A DNA stretch of 64,000 nt, from NCBI GenBank assembly GCA_038254365.1, contig JBBSGI010000009.1:1227-65226 (forward strand), written 5' to 3'. A program made the translations under genes and the position numbers. The notes below the pieces were generated by a model that was not told the origin of the DNA, made no database searches, and was given only the letters and a program-made list of their open reading frames with translations. Each line of letters starts with the position of its first letter. Position 1 is the first letter of the stretch. This document shows, in pieces, positions 57,698 to 64,000 of the stretch. The DNA is from Propionibacteriales bacterium. GTDB lineage: Bacteria > Actinomycetota > Actinomycetes > Propionibacteriales > Nocardioidaceae.

Positions 57698-59380
57698 TCA
57701 GATCGCACAGCGGTAGGGCTGGGGCATGCTTCCGTCAGCCAATCGGGCGGCGAAGAACCGCTCAGTCACCAGCTGCTTGCCGACACGCAACGACGCGGCT
57801 CCGGTGGTCAGCAGCATGTCCGGGCTGGTCTCGGCGTCCGCGCCGGCAGGATGCCAATGCAGCCCGTCGGCAGTGACCGTCAGCTCGGGGGTCGTGTCGT
57901 CTTCACCGATGTCCATCCCGTGGTCGGAGAAGCCCCGACGCAGCATGGGCCGTACCGCGAAGGCGTCGCCTTTCACCCCGAGGCCGGCGAGCATGTCCGC
58001 CACCTCCCCGATCTCGGCGGTGTTCTCCGGTGTCTCGGTGAGCGCAACCCGCACCACAAGCCCGAGGTCCAGCGCGGTCGCGATGCCGTCCATCGTGCGC
58101 TGCCACGAGCCTCGTCCGCGGTGGATGTCGTGCGTCGCGGCCGTTGCCCCGTCCAGCGAGGTTTGCACTACCAGATTCGGATGGTCGGCGAGGTCGCGCA
58201 GGGGATCGAGGCGGGCGCCCCGTAGCAGCATCGCGTTGGTGAGCAAGACCGTCGGCAACCGGTCGACGGCGTAGTGGAGCATGCCCGCGAGGTCGGGGTG
58301 CAGCATCGGCTCACCGCCGGTCAAATAGAGCTCGGCGAACTCTTCGTCGACGGCCTCGTCGACGCGGGCACGGAGCTGCTCGAGCGACAGGCTGCGAGCC
58401 CGGGCCTTTGGTGAGGATGCGACTGCGCAGTAGTCACACGCGAGGTTGCAGTGGAAGTTGGTATAGATCCACAACCGGGCAGGAAAGAACGGCGAGCCGA
58501 ACAGCGGAATCACCGGCAGCTCGCCATCGGTCGTGATGCCCGGGGGGCCACCCCACCCGTCGTCAGCGGCGGCGAAGCCGTCGGGCAGCGAGGAGCGGTA
58601 GAGGTGATACCGGCCGGTCGAGCGTTCTCGCGGCGGCAGAATCTCCAGACACGTGGCCCACCAGCCGGACTCGATCGTCTCGACGAAGGGCTGCGGCAAC
58701 CCGGCCCGGGTCATCGACGCGGCCTGGGCCTGCCAGTCGTAGTCCAGCGCGACGAGCTCGGCCCTGGCTTCCCCGTTTTCGATGTCAAGGACGGCGTACC
58801 AGACGCTGCGGGTGCCGTCGTTGGCCGGCTTGCCTAGCACGCCGACGTTGACGGCGAGGGTGTTGCCGATCCGCCGCTGCCACGGCAGCCCGCTGTGGGT
58901 GCAGAGGATGACGTCCGCGCCGCTGAGGGCCGCCCGAGCCTGGTGTTCCTCCTCGGGCAGAGACTCCCACCAGAAATCGTTCAACGCCACGGTAGAGCCG
59001 TGCACCAGGTGCAGATCACAGCCCTCGATCGTTACCCGCTGCTCGGTGGGCAGGGCTCCCATCCAGGCGGCGAACTGCGGGCTGGTGTGTGCCCGAGTGT
59101 GGTCGTAGATCAGCTGGGCGAACTCGTTGTCGCGAGGGTCGAGGTAGCCGCAGCCGCAATCGGGGTCGCCGCCGGCGAGGGCGACGTCGTAGTTGCCGGC
59201 GATGCACTCCATACCGGCGTCGGTCAGCAGCGGCCACAGGGTGTCCATCTCGGCGCCGAACCCACCAAGATCGCCGAGACAAAATAGCCGTTCGCAGCCG
59301 CGGGCCTTCGCGTCGATGATGAATGCCCGCAGCGCGTAGGGATTGGCGTAGGGGCCACCGCACACCGCTATGCGCGTCAT
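57698..59380 (-). CDS. fusion protein: calcineurin-like metallophosphoesterase (N) + radical SAM domain (C)
   Basis: Residues 1 to about 250 carry MPE motifs (IAVCGGPY, CLGDLGG, AGNYD, LVHGS, CTHSG). Residues from about 300 carry the radical SAM motif CNLACDYC (58427-58450) and LTGGEPMLHP. No SPASM or Cys-rich C-terminal domain is seen. Confidence 0.8.
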   Translation of the reverse strand: MTRIAVCGGPYANPYALRAFIIDAKARGCERLFCLGDLGGFGAEMDTLWPLLTDAGMECIAGNYDVALAGGDPDCGCGYLDPRDNEFAQLIYDHTRAHTSPQFAAWMGALPTEQRVTIEGCDLHLVHGSTVALNDFWWESLPEEEHQARAALSGADVILCTHSGLPWQRRIGNTLAVNVGVLGKPANDGTRSVWYAVLDIENGEARAELVALDYDWQAQAASMTRAGLPQPFVETIESGWWATCLEILPPRERSTGRYHLYRSSLPDGFAAADDGWGGPPGITTDGELPVIPLFGSPFFPARLWIYTNFHCNLACDYCAVASSPKARARSLSLEQLRARVDEAVDEEFAELYLTGGEPMLHPDLAGMLHYAVDRLPTVLLTNAMLLRGARLDPLRDLADHPNLVVQTSLDGATAATHDIHRGRGSWQRTMDGIATALDLGLVVRVALTETPENTAEIGEVADMLAGLGVKGDAFAVRPMLRRGFSDHGMDIGEDDTTPELTVTADGLHWHPAGADAETSPDMLLTTGAASLRVGKQLVTERFFAARLADGSMPQPYRCAI

Positions 59381-59438
59381 CTTCCCCCCAGTCTCGGCGT
59401 TCCCGCAGTTGCCGTCGTCGCTCGCGTCGTCGGTGAGT

Positions 59439-60839
59439 TCACAGCAGTACCGGTTCGGCGTGAAGCGGCGCCACGTCTTCGAGGGAGCGCCGCGACGGGT
59501 CGCGTCCGCCGTTGACCGCGGCGACGCCGACGGCGACCGCGCCGATCAACCAGAATCCCGCCACGAGCAGGTAGGACACGGTGGCGCCGAGGTCAGCGGC
59601 GATGCTGGGCAGGGCCAGGGTGCCGATGATCGCCCCGATGCGGCCGACCGCGACCGACGCCCCGACGCCGACCCCGCGCAGGTGCGTCGGGAAGAGCTCG
59701 GTGAACGTCGGGTAGGCCGACGTCCAGGCCGCGGTGCCCATGCCGTTGGCGACGACGAAGGCCAGCGTCACCCACACGGCACTGCCGCTCTGGGTGGCCA
59801 CGGAGAGCACGGCCACGGCGATCGCCGACAGGAGGTAACAAGCGCCGACCGTGCGCCTGTGGCCGACCCGATCAAACAAGCTGGCCATGATCAGGCCCCC
59901 AGCGAGCGCGCCCACGTTGCCGACGATGTAGAAGACCGGAATTCCGGATTGAGAGATGTCGATCTGCGGGAGCACGACCACCGACATCAGCGCGAACAGC
60001 CCGTAATAGCCGAACGCTTCGGCAAGATCGAGCATGGACCCCAATGCGAGCCGGCCCGGGTAGTGGCGCACCAGTTCGGCCAGCGCCGACCTCGTCGAAG
60101 CGACGACCGCAGGCCCGGACGCCGGGCTGGTCAGGGTCACCACCGGCGTCCGATCGCCTTCCAGCACCCGGATTGTCTGCTCGGCCTCAGTCATCCGCCC
60201 CTGGGAGGCCAGCCACCGTGGTGACTCTGGGATGCGGCGTCGGAAGAACAGCACGACAAGGGCGACCAGGCCGCCGAGGATGAACATGTAGCGCCAGGAC
60301 ACCGCGCTGGACAGGGCCAGGGTGTCGAGTGCGAAGTAGGCCAGCAGCCCAGCCAGGATGGCGCCAATCGGCCAGAAATTCATGACCAGCGCGTTCGCCT
60401 TCCCACGCACGCGCGCTGGCATGAACTCGGCGATGGCGGCGTTCACGATCGAGTATTCGGCCCCGACCCCGAGCGCGGCCAGGAAACGGAAGCCATAGAC
60501 GAAACTCAGATTCGGGCTCAAGCCCGTGAGCACAGTGAAGCCCGCGTACCAGAGCAGGGTGGCCACGAACAAGCGCCGCCGCCCGAAGCGGTCGGCTAGA
60601 CGACCGCCGACGACCGCCCCGAACAGGATGCCGACGAGCCAGATGGCAAGTACCGCGTCCCGCTCGAACATGCTCGCACCGAAGTGGTCGCCGAGCGGCC
60701 CGACAGCGCTGCTAAATATTTGTACTTCGAAGGAGTCGAACAGCCAGCCCGCGCCGAGCGCAATCAAGATCGTGGTGTGCAGACGTCGCCACGCCGCGTC
60801 GTCGAGGCGCCTACCGAGGTCGGTCTCAGTCGCCATCAA
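59439..60839 (-). CDS. MFS transporter (12-TMS, sugar-porter/metabolite:H+ symporter-like)
   Basis: GRLADRFGRRRLF, PESPRWL. Overlaps the upstream GT2 gene by 14 nt. Confidence 0.85.
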   Translation of the reverse strand: MMATETDLGRRLDDAAWRRLHTTILIALGAGWLFDSFEVQIFSSAVGPLGDHFGASMFERDAVLAIWLVGILFGAVVGGRLADRFGRRRLFVATLLWYAGFTVLTGLSPNLSFVYGFRFLAALGVGAEYSIVNAAIAEFMPARVRGKANALVMNFWPIGAILAGLLAYFALDTLALSSAVSWRYMFILGGLVALVVLFFRRRIPESPRWLASQGRMTEAEQTIRVLEGDRTPVVTLTSPASGPAVVASTRSALAELVRHYPGRLALGSMLDLAEAFGYYGLFALMSVVVLPQIDISQSGIPVFYIVGNVGALAGGLIMASLFDRVGHRRTVGACYLLSAIAVAVLSVATQSGSAVWVTLAFVVANGMGTAAWTSAYPTFTELFPTHLRGVGVGASVAVGRIGAIIGTLALPSIAADLGATVSYLLVAGFWLIGAVAVGVAAVNGGRDPSRRSLEDVAPLHAEPVLL

Positions 60840-61650
60840 GCTTCTCCTTCGTCATGCTGGGCCGGTGCAACGTCTGGGACCGTCCCCGCAGGCGTGGCAC
60901 GGTGATCCCCGGTCCGGCCTCGTAGCGGAGCCGGATCTGCTCAGGGGACACGCCGGTGAGGAACAGCAGCTTCAGGTACTGCATGAACGCGATCATCCGC
61001 AGCGTCCCGTGCTCAGTGAGGCGACGCGATGCGGCGGTGCTGGTCGCGGTGAGCACGACCATCCGCCCTGCCCGGTGCAGGCGTCGGGAGAACTCGAAGT
61101 CCTCCATCAGCGGCAGGGGGGCGAATCCGCCGAGTCGGTCGAAGGTGTCGCGGCGCACGAACATGGCCTGGTCGCCGAAGACGTGGTGCAGGCGGCGCGC
61201 CCGCAGCGTGGACACGCGGGCGAGGTAGTCCAAAGTCGGGGTGCGGCTATCAAAATGGAGAGTGAGCCCGCCGCCGACGGTGCCCGGGTCGCTCAGGGCC
61301 TCACGGATCTGCTCCAGCGCGTCCGGTGCGACGGCGGTGTCGGCGTGCACGAACCACAGGACGTCCCCGTGGGTGTGGCCTGCCCCTTCGTTCATCTGTC
61401 TAGCCCGTCCGGGGGCAGTCGTGACCACGCACGCCTGAGCGGCGGCCAGGTCGGGTGTGGCATCGCTGCTGCCGCCGTCGACCACGATGAGCTCGCAGTC
61501 GGGGAAGTCTTGGCGTAGCCGCCGCAGCGCGTCGCTGATGATCGGCGCCTCGTTGAGCACTGGTACGACGATGGACACGGCCAGGTTGTTGCACGCGGGC
61601 TCGCGCGATCGCCCGGACTTCGCCCCACCGGTCCTCGTTGACGCGCTCAT
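60826..61650 (-). CDS. family 2 glycosyltransferase resembling the rSAM/selenodomain-associated transferase 2 (TIGR04283-like)
   Basis: SIVVPVLNE, LIVVDGGSSD, GRARQMNEGA, FVHADT, GDQAMFVRR, LMEDFEFSRRL, STAASRR. This is the pattern I remember for TIGR04283. ATGA overlap upstream. Confidence 0.75.
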   Translation of the reverse strand: MSASTRTGGAKSGRSREPACNNLAVSIVVPVLNEAPIISDALRRLRQDFPDCELIVVDGGSSDATPDLAAAQACVVTTAPGRARQMNEGAGHTHGDVLWFVHADTAVAPDALEQIREALSDPGTVGGGLTLHFDSRTPTLDYLARVSTLRARRLHHVFGDQAMFVRRDTFDRLGGFAPLPLMEDFEFSRRLHRAGRMVVLTATSTAASRRLTEHGTLRMIAFMQYLKLLFLTGVSPEQIRLRYEAGPGITVPRLRGRSQTLHRPSMTKEKLDGD

Positions 61651-62327
61651 CCCGGCTCCAACGACTGCTCGATCGCCGAGGTGACGATGGCGTGGATCGA
61701 CGGCGGCAGCGCCCCGTCGGCAGCAAGTGCGCGCGCGTCGGCAGGGAGGTCAAGGTCCCTCAGTTCGGGTAGGAATGCGACAGTCAACCCGGCCGCGCGT
61801 GCCGCGGCGACGCTCCTTTCCAGCACGCACGGACCGCCCCATGAGGCCGGGTCGATCTCGAACACCTCGCCTACCGGCCGGCGCACTGCGATGAGGTAGT
61901 AGCCGCCGTCTAGAGCGGGGCCGAACACCACGTCGTGCCCCGCCTCGAGCAACCGGACCGCTGCGACGATAAGGCCCGACGTCAGGCTGGGCACATCAGT
62001 GCCGATCAGCACGACCGGGCCGGGTCGGGTCGCTGCGGCGTGCGCTACCGCAGCGGACATCCGTGAACCGAGATGGCTGCCTTGCTGGGCGACGACGGCC
62101 ACGGCAGGTCCTACCGTGGCCGCTACCTCGGTCACAGCGTCGGGAGGGTCGACCGCGACGATCAGGCGCGTCGGAGCTGCCCGCAGCGCGGTAGCTGCGG
62201 TGTGCACGATCAGGGCGTGTTGCAGTCGGGCGCATCCGGTAGCCCCGAGCAGCGGCTGCAGCCGCGTCTTCGTCCGGCCCGGGCGTGCGGCTCGCGCCAT
62301 CACCACAACCGTCGGGAGCAGGTTCAC
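61647..62327 (-). CDS. DUF2064 / CofC-like nucleotidyl- or glycosyl-transferase (TIGR04282-like, transferase 1)
   Basis: VVMARAARPGRTKTRLQPLLG, QQGSHLGSRM, LIGTDVPSL, FGPALDGGYYLI. GTG 62327 overlaps the radical SAM stop as GTGA. Confidence 0.75.
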   Translation of the reverse strand: MNLLPTVVVMARAARPGRTKTRLQPLLGATGCARLQHALIVHTAATALRAAPTRLIVAVDPPDAVTEVAATVGPAVAVVAQQGSHLGSRMSAAVAHAAATRPGPVVLIGTDVPSLTSGLIVAAVRLLEAGHDVVFGPALDGGYYLIAVRRPVGEVFEIDPASWGGPCVLERSVAAARAAGLTVAFLPELRDLDLPADARALAADGALPPSIHAIVTSAIEQSLEPG

Positions 62328-63739
62328 GTGTCGAACCGGTAGTTGGTGCCGATGGTGGGCAGCAGCGGCAGCGTCCGACGCAGTGCGACGTTCTCGATGG
62401 GGTCGAGCACGCTGTGCTGGACGCAGGCCGGGACGAGTTCCCCGGTCTCGGGGTGCGCCATCGCATATGAGCACGCCTGAAGCCGCTGCTGGACGGCCAG
62501 CACGCAGGGCTCTGTGCTGGTCTCGCCGCGCTGCAGCGCCTCCCACGCGGGCGCGACATCGCTGGCGTCCATGAACGAGTGCATCACGAACGTCACCGGC
62601 CGGATCCGGCGCTGGCGCATGAGGTTCCGGACACCGACCTTGGCGAGCATGCGTACCGCCCAGCCGGTGAAGACTATGGCGGCCGAAGGATGGCGAGCGA
62701 TGACCCGCAGCAGCTTTATGATCAGCGTCGGCAACGGTGTGCCGGCGAAGTCGACCCCGCCGAGATGTCGGAAGAACACGTCGCGGGTGTGCAGGTCGGC
62801 GAGGTCCTCGTCGTCCAGGATCGGGAAGTAGCGGTTGCCGACGTAGAAGCCGTACGTGGTGCGGTTGCAGCGTTCGTCGCCGATCTGCAGCGCCCGGAAC
62901 GGAAGGCGGGTGCCAGCGCCCGCCTCGATCTGCGCCCACACGTCATCGGCCGTGGACTCGTGGAAGCTCTCGTGCCAGCGGCGGTCGTCGCCGACGAAGG
63001 CGGCCGGCTGGAAGGAGAACAGCCCGAAGCCGTAGTCGTGGCAGTCGCGGATGACGCCGGCGATCTGGTCGAGGTTGCGGGGAGTGACCGTCATGTTGTG
63101 CGCGATGAAGTAGGGGATGCCGTGGTCTCTGCGCAGCGCGGCGAACATGTCGGCGAACCGACGTCGGTATGGGTTCAGGGAGCGCTCGTCGGGTGGACGT
63201 TCGACGCCACGGCGACCGAACATGAGCATGTCGAAATGCCCGGCGAACGAGATGCGGGGCAGTCGCGGCGCTCCGTCGGCGTCGAGGGCGAGAGCAGTGA
63301 GGTAGTCGAGGTCGAAGTCGCCGTGACTCATGCTCATCGGCTCGCGGCCCTGCTCGCGCATGGCCAGCAGAGCCGCGGCATGGTCGTCGGGGGGAAGCAG
63401 GCTGACCTCGCCGCCGATCAGCTGTGCATGCGCTCGCGGTCCACGCAGGCGGCGCAGCAGCCGCATCTGCGCGCGAACCTGGTCGACAGTGTGCCGGCCG
63501 TCGACCCGGACGCGGTTGGCGTCGCGGGAGTGGTAGCACGGGGTGCACGCCAGATTGCATCGCGGGAACACCCCGTGGGTTCCCTCGCAACCCACCGCAT
63601 GCTGGCCGAGCGCCTGTGCCCGGGTCCGGACATGCTCGGGCAGCGACTGCCACCGCTGCCTTAGCACCGTCGCAGTCTCTGGGTCGACCGGGCGGGTGGC
63701 TCGCGCGAGGCTCCGAAGTCGCCCGAGAAGTCGGCCCAT
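62324..63739 (-). CDS. radical SAM protein, 471 aa, family unresolved
   Basis: CX3CX2C motif CNLACTPC (63536-63559), preceded by GCEGTHG. A long C-terminal extension carries Cys at CVLAVQQRLQAC and PAC. It is neither ArsS-like nor SPASM-like by eye. Confidence 0.8.
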   Translation of the reverse strand: MGRLLGRLRSLARATRPVDPETATVLRQRWQSLPEHVRTRAQALGQHAVGCEGTHGVFPRCNLACTPCYHSRDANRVRVDGRHTVDQVRAQMRLLRRLRGPRAHAQLIGGEVSLLPPDDHAAALLAMREQGREPMSMSHGDFDLDYLTALALDADGAPRLPRISFAGHFDMLMFGRRGVERPPDERSLNPYRRRFADMFAALRRDHGIPYFIAHNMTVTPRNLDQIAGVIRDCHDYGFGLFSFQPAAFVGDDRRWHESFHESTADDVWAQIEAGAGTRLPFRALQIGDERCNRTTYGFYVGNRYFPILDDEDLADLHTRDVFFRHLGGVDFAGTPLPTLIIKLLRVIARHPSAAIVFTGWAVRMLAKVGVRNLMRQRRIRPVTFVMHSFMDASDVAPAWEALQRGETSTEPCVLAVQQRLQACSYAMAHPETGELVPACVQHSVLDPIENVALRRTLPLLPTIGTNYRFDT

Positions 63740-63846
63740 CAGGCCTCGGTGACCGAGATCGAATCCGAGAACGACACGTGGTTCAGGATCGTCTGGTCAC
63801 CGCGGGCGATGGCCGTATCGTTGAGTGTGGCGACGTAGGTGGTCAT
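63739..63846 (-). CDS. 35-codon ORF translationally coupled to the radical SAM gene
   Basis: MTTYVATLNDTAIARGDQTILNHVSFSDSISVTEA. GC3 is about 31/35. AAGGAC-N4-ATG is the likely RBS and start, and the TGA shares one base with the radical SAM ATG (TGATG). Confidence 0.5.
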   Translation of the reverse strand: MTTYVATLNDTAIARGDQTILNHVSFSDSISVTEA

Positions 63847-64000
63847 ACCTGTCCTTCGTTGTCGGAAGGGGTTCGGTTCGCGCGTGGTACCCGGCCAAGA
63901 CTGTCGAAGGGGCCGTGACCGACAAGCCCTCTGCGGTCCATCAGGACGGCGCTACGGAGGTAAGCCGCAGAACTCTCCTCGTATCGATGGCGGGGGCGAA

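Follow-up and report, generated by a model that had tools for sequence, protein, structure and literature searches.

Small peptides that adjoin radical S-adenosylmethionine (rSAM) maturases, such as PqqA next to PqqE and MftA next to MftC, are well known. We analyzed a window of 64,000 nucleotides (nt) from Propionibacteriales bacterium (assembly GCA_038254365.1, contig JBBSGI010000009.1; G000:C9:1227-65226 in our numbering), in which a 35-codon open reading frame (ORF) lies directly before an rSAM gene on the minus strand. This small ORF is what the locus shares with the PqqA/PqqE and MftA/MftC type. However, its peptide belongs to no conserved family, contains no Cys, Trp, or Lys, and appears to be drifting in sequence, and no SPASM or RRE domain was detected in the rSAM protein. 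Very probably, the ORF is the pseudogene stump of a DUF427 gene that stood first in the operon and lost 186 nt in frame; its product appears to be without function.

DUF427 (PF04248, NTP_transf_9; PDB ID: 3DJM) is included in the beta-tent group in passages of PMC4287342, where in 2015 it was described as a domain of unknown function. The two ends of the window relic are the N- and C-termini of the DUF427 orthologue found at the same locus in relatives. However, 62 of the 97 residues are missing, including the EGNxYFP, CPWKG, and AWTYRHP motifs, and the relic has no Pfam match. Stop-start overlaps of co-directional genes (ATGA or TGATG) are the typical layout for termination-reinitiation (Huber et al. 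2019, PMC6728339). The window has the same geometry, with an overlap of 1 nt where intact relatives have 4 nt. Its upstream partner, however, is a 35-codon wreck and not a gene, and the coupling itself we infer from the layout. The peptide also bears a weak pattern likeness to the N-terminal strands that precede Walker A in ATP-binding cassette (ABC) ATPases, as seen in ABC-F N-termini of the same genome. This likeness lacks both significance and support from Pfam, and it arose with the deletion junction.

The features discussed below are as follows (window positions).

63739-63846, minus strand: 35-codon relic ORF plus stop, very probably derived from a DUF427 gene by an in-frame deletion
63784-63846, minus strand: N-terminal piece, codons 1-21, matching DUF427 residues 1-21
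63783-63784, minus strand: deletion junction, 186 nt (62 codons) gone, in frame; base 63784 fits either side
63739-63783, minus strand: C-terminal piece, codons 22-35 and TGA, matching DUF427 residues 84-97
63852-63857, minus strand: Shine-Dalgarno-like GAAGGA inherited from the DUF427 gene, ending 5 nt ahead of the ATG
62324-63739, minus strand: rSAM gene (471 amino acids), its ATG overlapping the stop of the relic
63744-63747, minus strand: GAGG in codons 33-35, separated by 4 nt from the rSAM ATG and possibly that gene's own ribosome-binding site (RBS)

The ORF runs from ATG (63846) to TGA (63739) and encodes MTTYVATLNDTAIARGDQTILNHVSFSDSISVTEA. Its GC content at third codon positions (GC3) is 31/35 (0.89), compared with 0.49 in the other two frames of the same strand and 0.87 in the rSAM gene. 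The GAAGGA ahead of the ATG is also present in the relatives L086, L088, L003, and L005. In the TGATG at 63737-63741, base 63739 (A) is common to the TGA of the ORF and the ATG of the rSAM gene. An earlier note, made from the letters of this DNA alone, had reported the ORF, the GC3 (about 31 of 35), the RBS, the overlap, and the missing Cys, Trp, and Lys. All of these were reproduced from the sequence. The high GC3 is a trace of recent coding ancestry and no proof of a present peptide function.

Descent from a DUF427 gene

For relatives of the rSAM protein, 80 loci from genomes and 80 from metagenomes were collected, and the DNA upstream of each was searched. The matches of the 35-residue peptide in tblastn were split: the first half fell on the start and the second half on the end of an ORF of about 97 codons directly before the rSAM gene. 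This longer ORF is DUF427 (E-values of 1.9e-30 in L006, 1.2e-29 in L054, 5.5e-29 in L005, and 3e-28 in L086), and intact orthologues score 98-105 bits for PF04248 at a cut-off of 22.1. The nearest intact copies of 97 residues are those of L086 (identical to L087) and L088, where the rSAM protein is 84-86% identical to that of the window. The L086 protein begins MTTYVATVNDTVIARSDQTV and finishes KNHVAFWDAGSVTEA; its sequence ends read MTTYVATVNDTVIARSDQTVVIEGNRYFPP...ARKIKNHVAFWDAGSVTEA. Aligned with it, the window peptide corresponds to residues 1-21 and 84-97 with one gap. The N-terminal piece matches at 76% identity (query 1-21, E = 1e-07) and the C-terminal piece at 69% (query 82-97, E = 0.04). 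The locus is the same, and the DNA is collinear with DUF427 genes at both ends. A profile built from 22 DUF427 homologues scores the window peptide at 10.1 bits. The peptide itself does not reach the Pfam cut-off for DUF427. Pfam gave no family for it, ABC_tran included, even at E-values up to 10, and NCBIfam gave no match. Among approximately 15 billion proteins clustered at 90% identity, it is a singleton cluster.

The deletion can be followed in Logan contigs of four sequencing runs (X1-X4), which were aligned to window positions 63300-64000. X1, which may be the source sample, gave an 809-nt contig from a separate assembly that is identical to the window across the junction. The 598-nt contig of X2 (record 14), from another study, continues across the junction without a break; over 488 nt it has 14 differences from the window and two gaps of 1 nt. 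X2 thus carries the same deletion. X3 and X4 come from two studies other than those of X1 and X2. In X3 (record 23), positions 63528-63784 map to 1218-1474 and positions 63784-63938 to 878-1032, so that the halves lie 186 nt apart. In X4 (record 24), the halves are at 270-742 and 928-1082, again 186 nt apart. The C-terminal piece is contiguous with the rSAM gene in both. The deletion is real, because X2 has the same junction and the halves in X3 and X4 are separated by 186 nt. It postdates the split from the X3 and X4 lineages and predates the split from X2. The stump is not the gene fragment of an insertion, which the earlier note had offered as one possibility, with the operon placed inside another gene; instead, 186 internal bases disappeared from the gene that stood first in the operon.

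The bases removed encoded nearly the whole fold. In an alignment of 18 intact DUF427 homologues there are 29 invariant columns, of which 23 fall within the deleted residues 22-83. The lost core comprises E23, N25, Y27-F28-P29, C47-P48-W49-K50-G51, and A69-W70-T71-Y72-R73-H74-P75 (L086 numbering). The window peptide cannot be a DUF427 domain, because the deletion took nearly all of the fold together with these invariant residues. An AlphaFold model of the L086 protein (mean predicted local distance difference test score 84, predicted template modeling score 0.74) superposes on 3DJM, a DUF427 structure from Rhodobacter sphaeroides, with a template modeling score of 0.82. The next matches are yippee/Mis18, the RIG-I C-terminal domain, cereblon, and MsrB. 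Together these correspond to the beta-tent group as laid out in passages of PMC4287342. Both helices of the model fall within the deleted part, as do the strands 25-28, 38-46, 51-60, and 63-73 and a portion of strand 20-22.

What is left does not look constrained. At the six surviving invariant positions the window has altered three (V12A, S16G, and A87S), while X2, X3, and X4 retain the old residues. In the N-terminal piece, codons 12, 16, and 20 differ from the state in X2-X4. Between the window and X2, both of which carry the deletion, 7 of the 108 ORF bases differ, in 6 of the 35 codons. Four codons changed non-synonymously (12, 16, 20, and 25, with two base changes in codon 20). The two synonymous changes, in codons 34 and 35, are both within the translation start region of the rSAM gene. 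The comparison with X2, in which the numbers are small, gives no sign of purifying selection on the peptide. The 35-residue product itself appears to be without function and to be drifting. The stump is an ordinary, recent gene relic.

The following course of events would account for these observations. In the ancestor, a DUF427 gene of about 97 codons would have stood first in the operon, with its stop overlapping the rSAM start. In the lineage of the window, one in-frame deletion of 186 nt would have taken codons 22-83. The stump keeps the old RBS and ATG, and its TGA, now after 35 codons, shares a base with the rSAM ATG.

The rSAM start and the fate of DUF427 in relatives

The stop-start overlap is old, and its details have changed in the window. 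Where DUF427 runs into the rSAM gene in relatives, the two share 4 nt, as GTGA in L086, L088, and L002 and as ATGA in L003 and L005. A change of codon 35 from GCG to GCC removed the ancestral GTG start from the window. The window rSAM gene therefore uses the ATG one codon downstream. X2 has ATC at that codon and must thus use GTG. A change of codon 34 from GAA to GAG turned GAAG into GAGG upstream of the rSAM start. X2-X4 (63745 C>T), L086, and L002 all read GAAG, so GAGG is derived in the lineage of the window.

The relic and the rSAM gene lie on the same strand and share the 1-nt overlap, as coupled pairs do with 1 or 4 nt. From this layout, which would be inherited from the intact gene, the chances appear to us about evenly divided that ribosomes still translate the stump and finish on the rSAM start, so aiding rSAM translation by termination-reinitiation.

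Several points weigh against the reading of the ORF as a translated deletion relic. Among the RNA runs listed, none carries this stretch, so that stump translation and coupling find no support there. The rSAM gene may not need coupling, because it has its own GAGG 4 nt before the ATG. A hairpin predicted to mask the rSAM start is not significant (z = -1.28; 21 of 200 shuffled sequences fold as well). The counts of changes within the 35-codon ORF are small. That the inserts of X3 and X4 encode DUF427 residues 22-83 is probable from their length and from L086. Finally, one MAFFT run (A3) set the gap elsewhere, owing to a chance likeness, GATTCGATC. This placement was dropped for the single 186-nt gap of alignment A1, as the X3 and X4 contigs decide the matter.

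Decay of the DUF427 gene is common among relatives. Of 157 loci with the rSAM N-terminus, 39 (the window included) have DUF427 or pieces of it upstream and 118 have none, a count that includes loci with too little upstream DNA (for example 14-79 nt in L100, L106, L101, L039, L149, and L131). States of decay were compared in nine loci with an rSAM protein at least 84% identical; more distant loci are given after them.

L086 (identical to L087), L088: DUF427 intact
L002 (identical to L084; Jatrophihabitans lederbergiae): 2-nt deletion, frameshift
L082: frameshift close to the start
L083: 12 codons deleted in frame at the C-terminus
Window: 62 codons deleted in frame
L085: no trace of DUF427
L010, L011 (more distant): other internal in-frame deletions
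L007, L012, L016 (more distant): degenerate pieces of DUF427
L110, L112 (more distant): C-terminal frameshift

DUF427 is a dispensable first gene of the rSAM operon. Its repeated loss suggests that it is a dispensable accessory of that pathway. The only other DUF427 gene in the genome of the window is a two-domain ORF at G000:C38:3194-3853 on the minus strand (frame of 286 amino acids, 270 from a GTG), with no rSAM gene nearby.

A pseudogene could still be of use to its neighbor. One explanation holds that the relic is an exapted leader ORF, kept by selection to deliver ribosomes to the rSAM start, with the frame and the overlap preserved and the peptide free to drift. We consider this unlikely. 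The start, the RBS, and the open frame to the rSAM gene do persist in both the window and the X2 lineage, which differ by approximately 3%. At 69% GC, however, a random frame of 35 codons stays open about half the time (an estimate from base composition). The four recognizable large deletions (window, L083, L010, and L011) are all multiples of three and keep both ends of the gene, but this count of four out of four is biased, as large out-of-frame deletions are hard to recognize. In the predicted fold, the region around the rSAM start is paired with the 5' half of the relic, but this fold, as stated above, is not significant, and the rSAM gene has a GAGG of its own. Frameshifted forms (L002, L082, and L110/L112) and the DUF427-free L085 also exist, 118 of the 157 loci show no DUF427 sequence upstream, and many relatives manage without any upstream frame. 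Less likely still is the broader proposal that the stump is a gene turned leader, in which DUF427 was dispensable, selection kept just the start and the stop-start overlap, and the window, L083, L010, and L011 are parallel exaptations.

Other identities for the ORF

The deletion-relic reading also has to be weighed against the two identities that the earlier note had offered. The first is a substrate or precursor peptide of the rSAM enzyme, in a pair resembling those for ribosomally synthesized and post-translationally modified peptides (RiPPs). In its favor are the small size of the ORF, its high GC3, its good RBS, and its stop-start overlap with the rSAM gene. However, tblastn over the 157 loci found no conserved small ORF beside homologous rSAM genes: orthologous genes have a full DUF427, its wrecks, or no DUF427 sequence upstream. 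The peptide is a singleton, differs non-synonymously from its nearest relative (X2) in 4 of 35 codons, and has no Cys, Trp, or Lys. Pfam shows PF04055 alone in the rSAM protein (E = 9.8e-08, residues 58-231), and NCBIfam gives weak Tes/TrsS-like matches, far below the cut-offs, so that neither collection places a SPASM or RRE domain there; the C-terminal 240 or so residues match no family and do hold cysteines. The TIGR04282 and TIGR04283 transferases and the major facilitator superfamily (MFS) transporter of the operon point to small-molecule chemistry. A precursor peptide is thus very improbable. The 35-residue frame has already been called as a protein and could pass for a RiPP precursor; it should be marked as a remnant. 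A caution for reading sequence alone is that high GC3 and a start-stop overlap may outlast the gene that made them.

The second identity was that of an ABC transporter ATPase gene interrupted by insertion of the operon, with the ORF as its stump. That the ORF is the stump of an older gene, with RBS, ATG, and stop-start overlap kept, has held up; that the gene was an ABC gene has not, since both halves are the ends of DUF427. The resemblance to ABC N-termini is reproducible. Apart from the ORF itself, the sequences of the genome that tblastn ranks highest are N-termini of ABC-F-like ORFs. There are two of these, one on contig C63 (41% over 27 residues, E = 0.074; an ORF of 560 amino acids with a Walker A motif) and one on C100 (E = 1.3). 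Neither match is significant, and Pfam gives no ABC_tran match at E-values up to 10. A profile of the N-termini from the 49 ABC-like ORFs of the genome scores the peptide at 2.2 bits, against the 10.1 bits of the DUF427 profile. The likeness runs across the deletion junction (GDQTI/LNHVSF, the stroke marking the junction). It was therefore absent before the deletion and is due to chance. The DNA of both halves is, moreover, collinear with DUF427 genes. The ABC stump is refuted by the alignment to DUF427 together with the contigs of X3 and X4, and we give it practically no credence.

Equally remote is a mis-join in the metagenome-assembled genome, which is a bin of 215 contigs with 6.8% contamination and in which the site is near a contig end (the contig stops 242 nt past the end of the window), given the identical X1 contig from a separate assembly and the same junction in X2 with substitutions of its own.

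Operon and upstream region

The DUF427 relic heads an operon that spans 57698-63739 on the minus strand. Behind the rSAM gene, the same strand encodes a transferase (TIGR04282/DUF2064), a family-2 glycosyltransferase (TIGR04283), and an MFS transporter, as well as a fusion protein that joins a metallophosphoesterase to an Rv1681-like rSAM protein. Judged by their families, these genes point to small-molecule chemistry as the probable role of the operon. A 430-residue ORF at 61647-62939 (minus strand) overlaps the rSAM gene. Its DUF2064/TIGR04282 match begins at residue 211, and the real gene therefore probably starts near 62310-62320, at the rSAM stop. Related operons vary in content: L005 has a PNP_UDP_1 phosphorylase in addition; in L006 the genes that follow are instead those for a CDP-alcohol transferase and a solute-binding protein, and in L004 they are ABC-uptake genes.

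The rSAM gene is single-copy in the genome of the window. Relatives of its protein number 2597 at E-values of 0.001 or less among 8000 scored, the nearest at 84-85% identity. Proteins at 84-86% are found in Jatrophihabitans lederbergiae and several soil contigs. Among the six other genomes of the same genus, two have a match (G001:C3 and G002:C3; loci L173 and L174), at 58-60% identity, which is of no use for dating the deletion. This patchy distribution could mean gene transfer or a binning problem, the bin having 6.8% contamination. For DUF427 the locus provides a lead: in part of the Actinomycetota, a DUF427 gene stands first, joined by its overlap, in the operon of an uncharacterized Tes-like rSAM enzyme.

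One further feature lies upstream of the stump.

63847-64000, minus strand: 5' leader as far as it falls within the window; the final 34 or so nt (63847-63880) match the stretch before DUF427 in L086

A search of the leader with Rfam gave no family at an E-value of 1 or less, and a search of fifteen related loci returned just a tRNA and a sub-threshold SorX match, with no known riboswitch or leader RNA. A scan of 63400-64000 found no sigma-70-like promoter and no terminator. The earlier note had suggested that the stump supplies the promoter of the operon. The likely promoter is further upstream, outside the stump. A two-box motif, GGGAWG-N15-CCGGGTTYC, is found about 170 nt before the stump ATG, 16-45 nt past the end of the window (L001:2117-2146, minus strand; equal to G000:C9:65242-65271). 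Among 148 upstream regions of 300 nt or more, 37 contain it, always with a length of 30 nt, compared with 0 matches in the reversed sequences and 2 in the reverse complements. The genome of the window has one occurrence. In 41 relative genomes (the window's included) there are eight, one of them 51 nt before an intact DUF427-rSAM pair.

The motif is a putative extracytoplasmic function (ECF)-type promoter. In its boxes and spacing it agrees with the actinobacterial SigH/SigE-type consensus given in passages of PMC10012870 (GGAAt-N18-19-GTT). The spacer shows no conservation, and compensating changes are absent, which argues against an RNA helix. Such a helix, from GGGAA/TTCCC pairing, was considered and rejected, as GGGAT variants keep TTYC. 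No sigma-factor gene is next to the motif in six loci, where the upstream neighbors are of the CMD family, a methyltransferase, a flavoprotein, or of no family.

The likeness between the window and L086 in the leader (blastn, 83.7% over 43 nt) ends approximately 35 nt above the stump ATG, so that the window may have lost a second gene upstream as well. A small gene of the NrtS family (NF038050) is present ahead of DUF427 or the rSAM gene in L088 (900-1196) and L018 (3593-3925). In L086, an NrtS-like frame reaches the DUF427 ATG.

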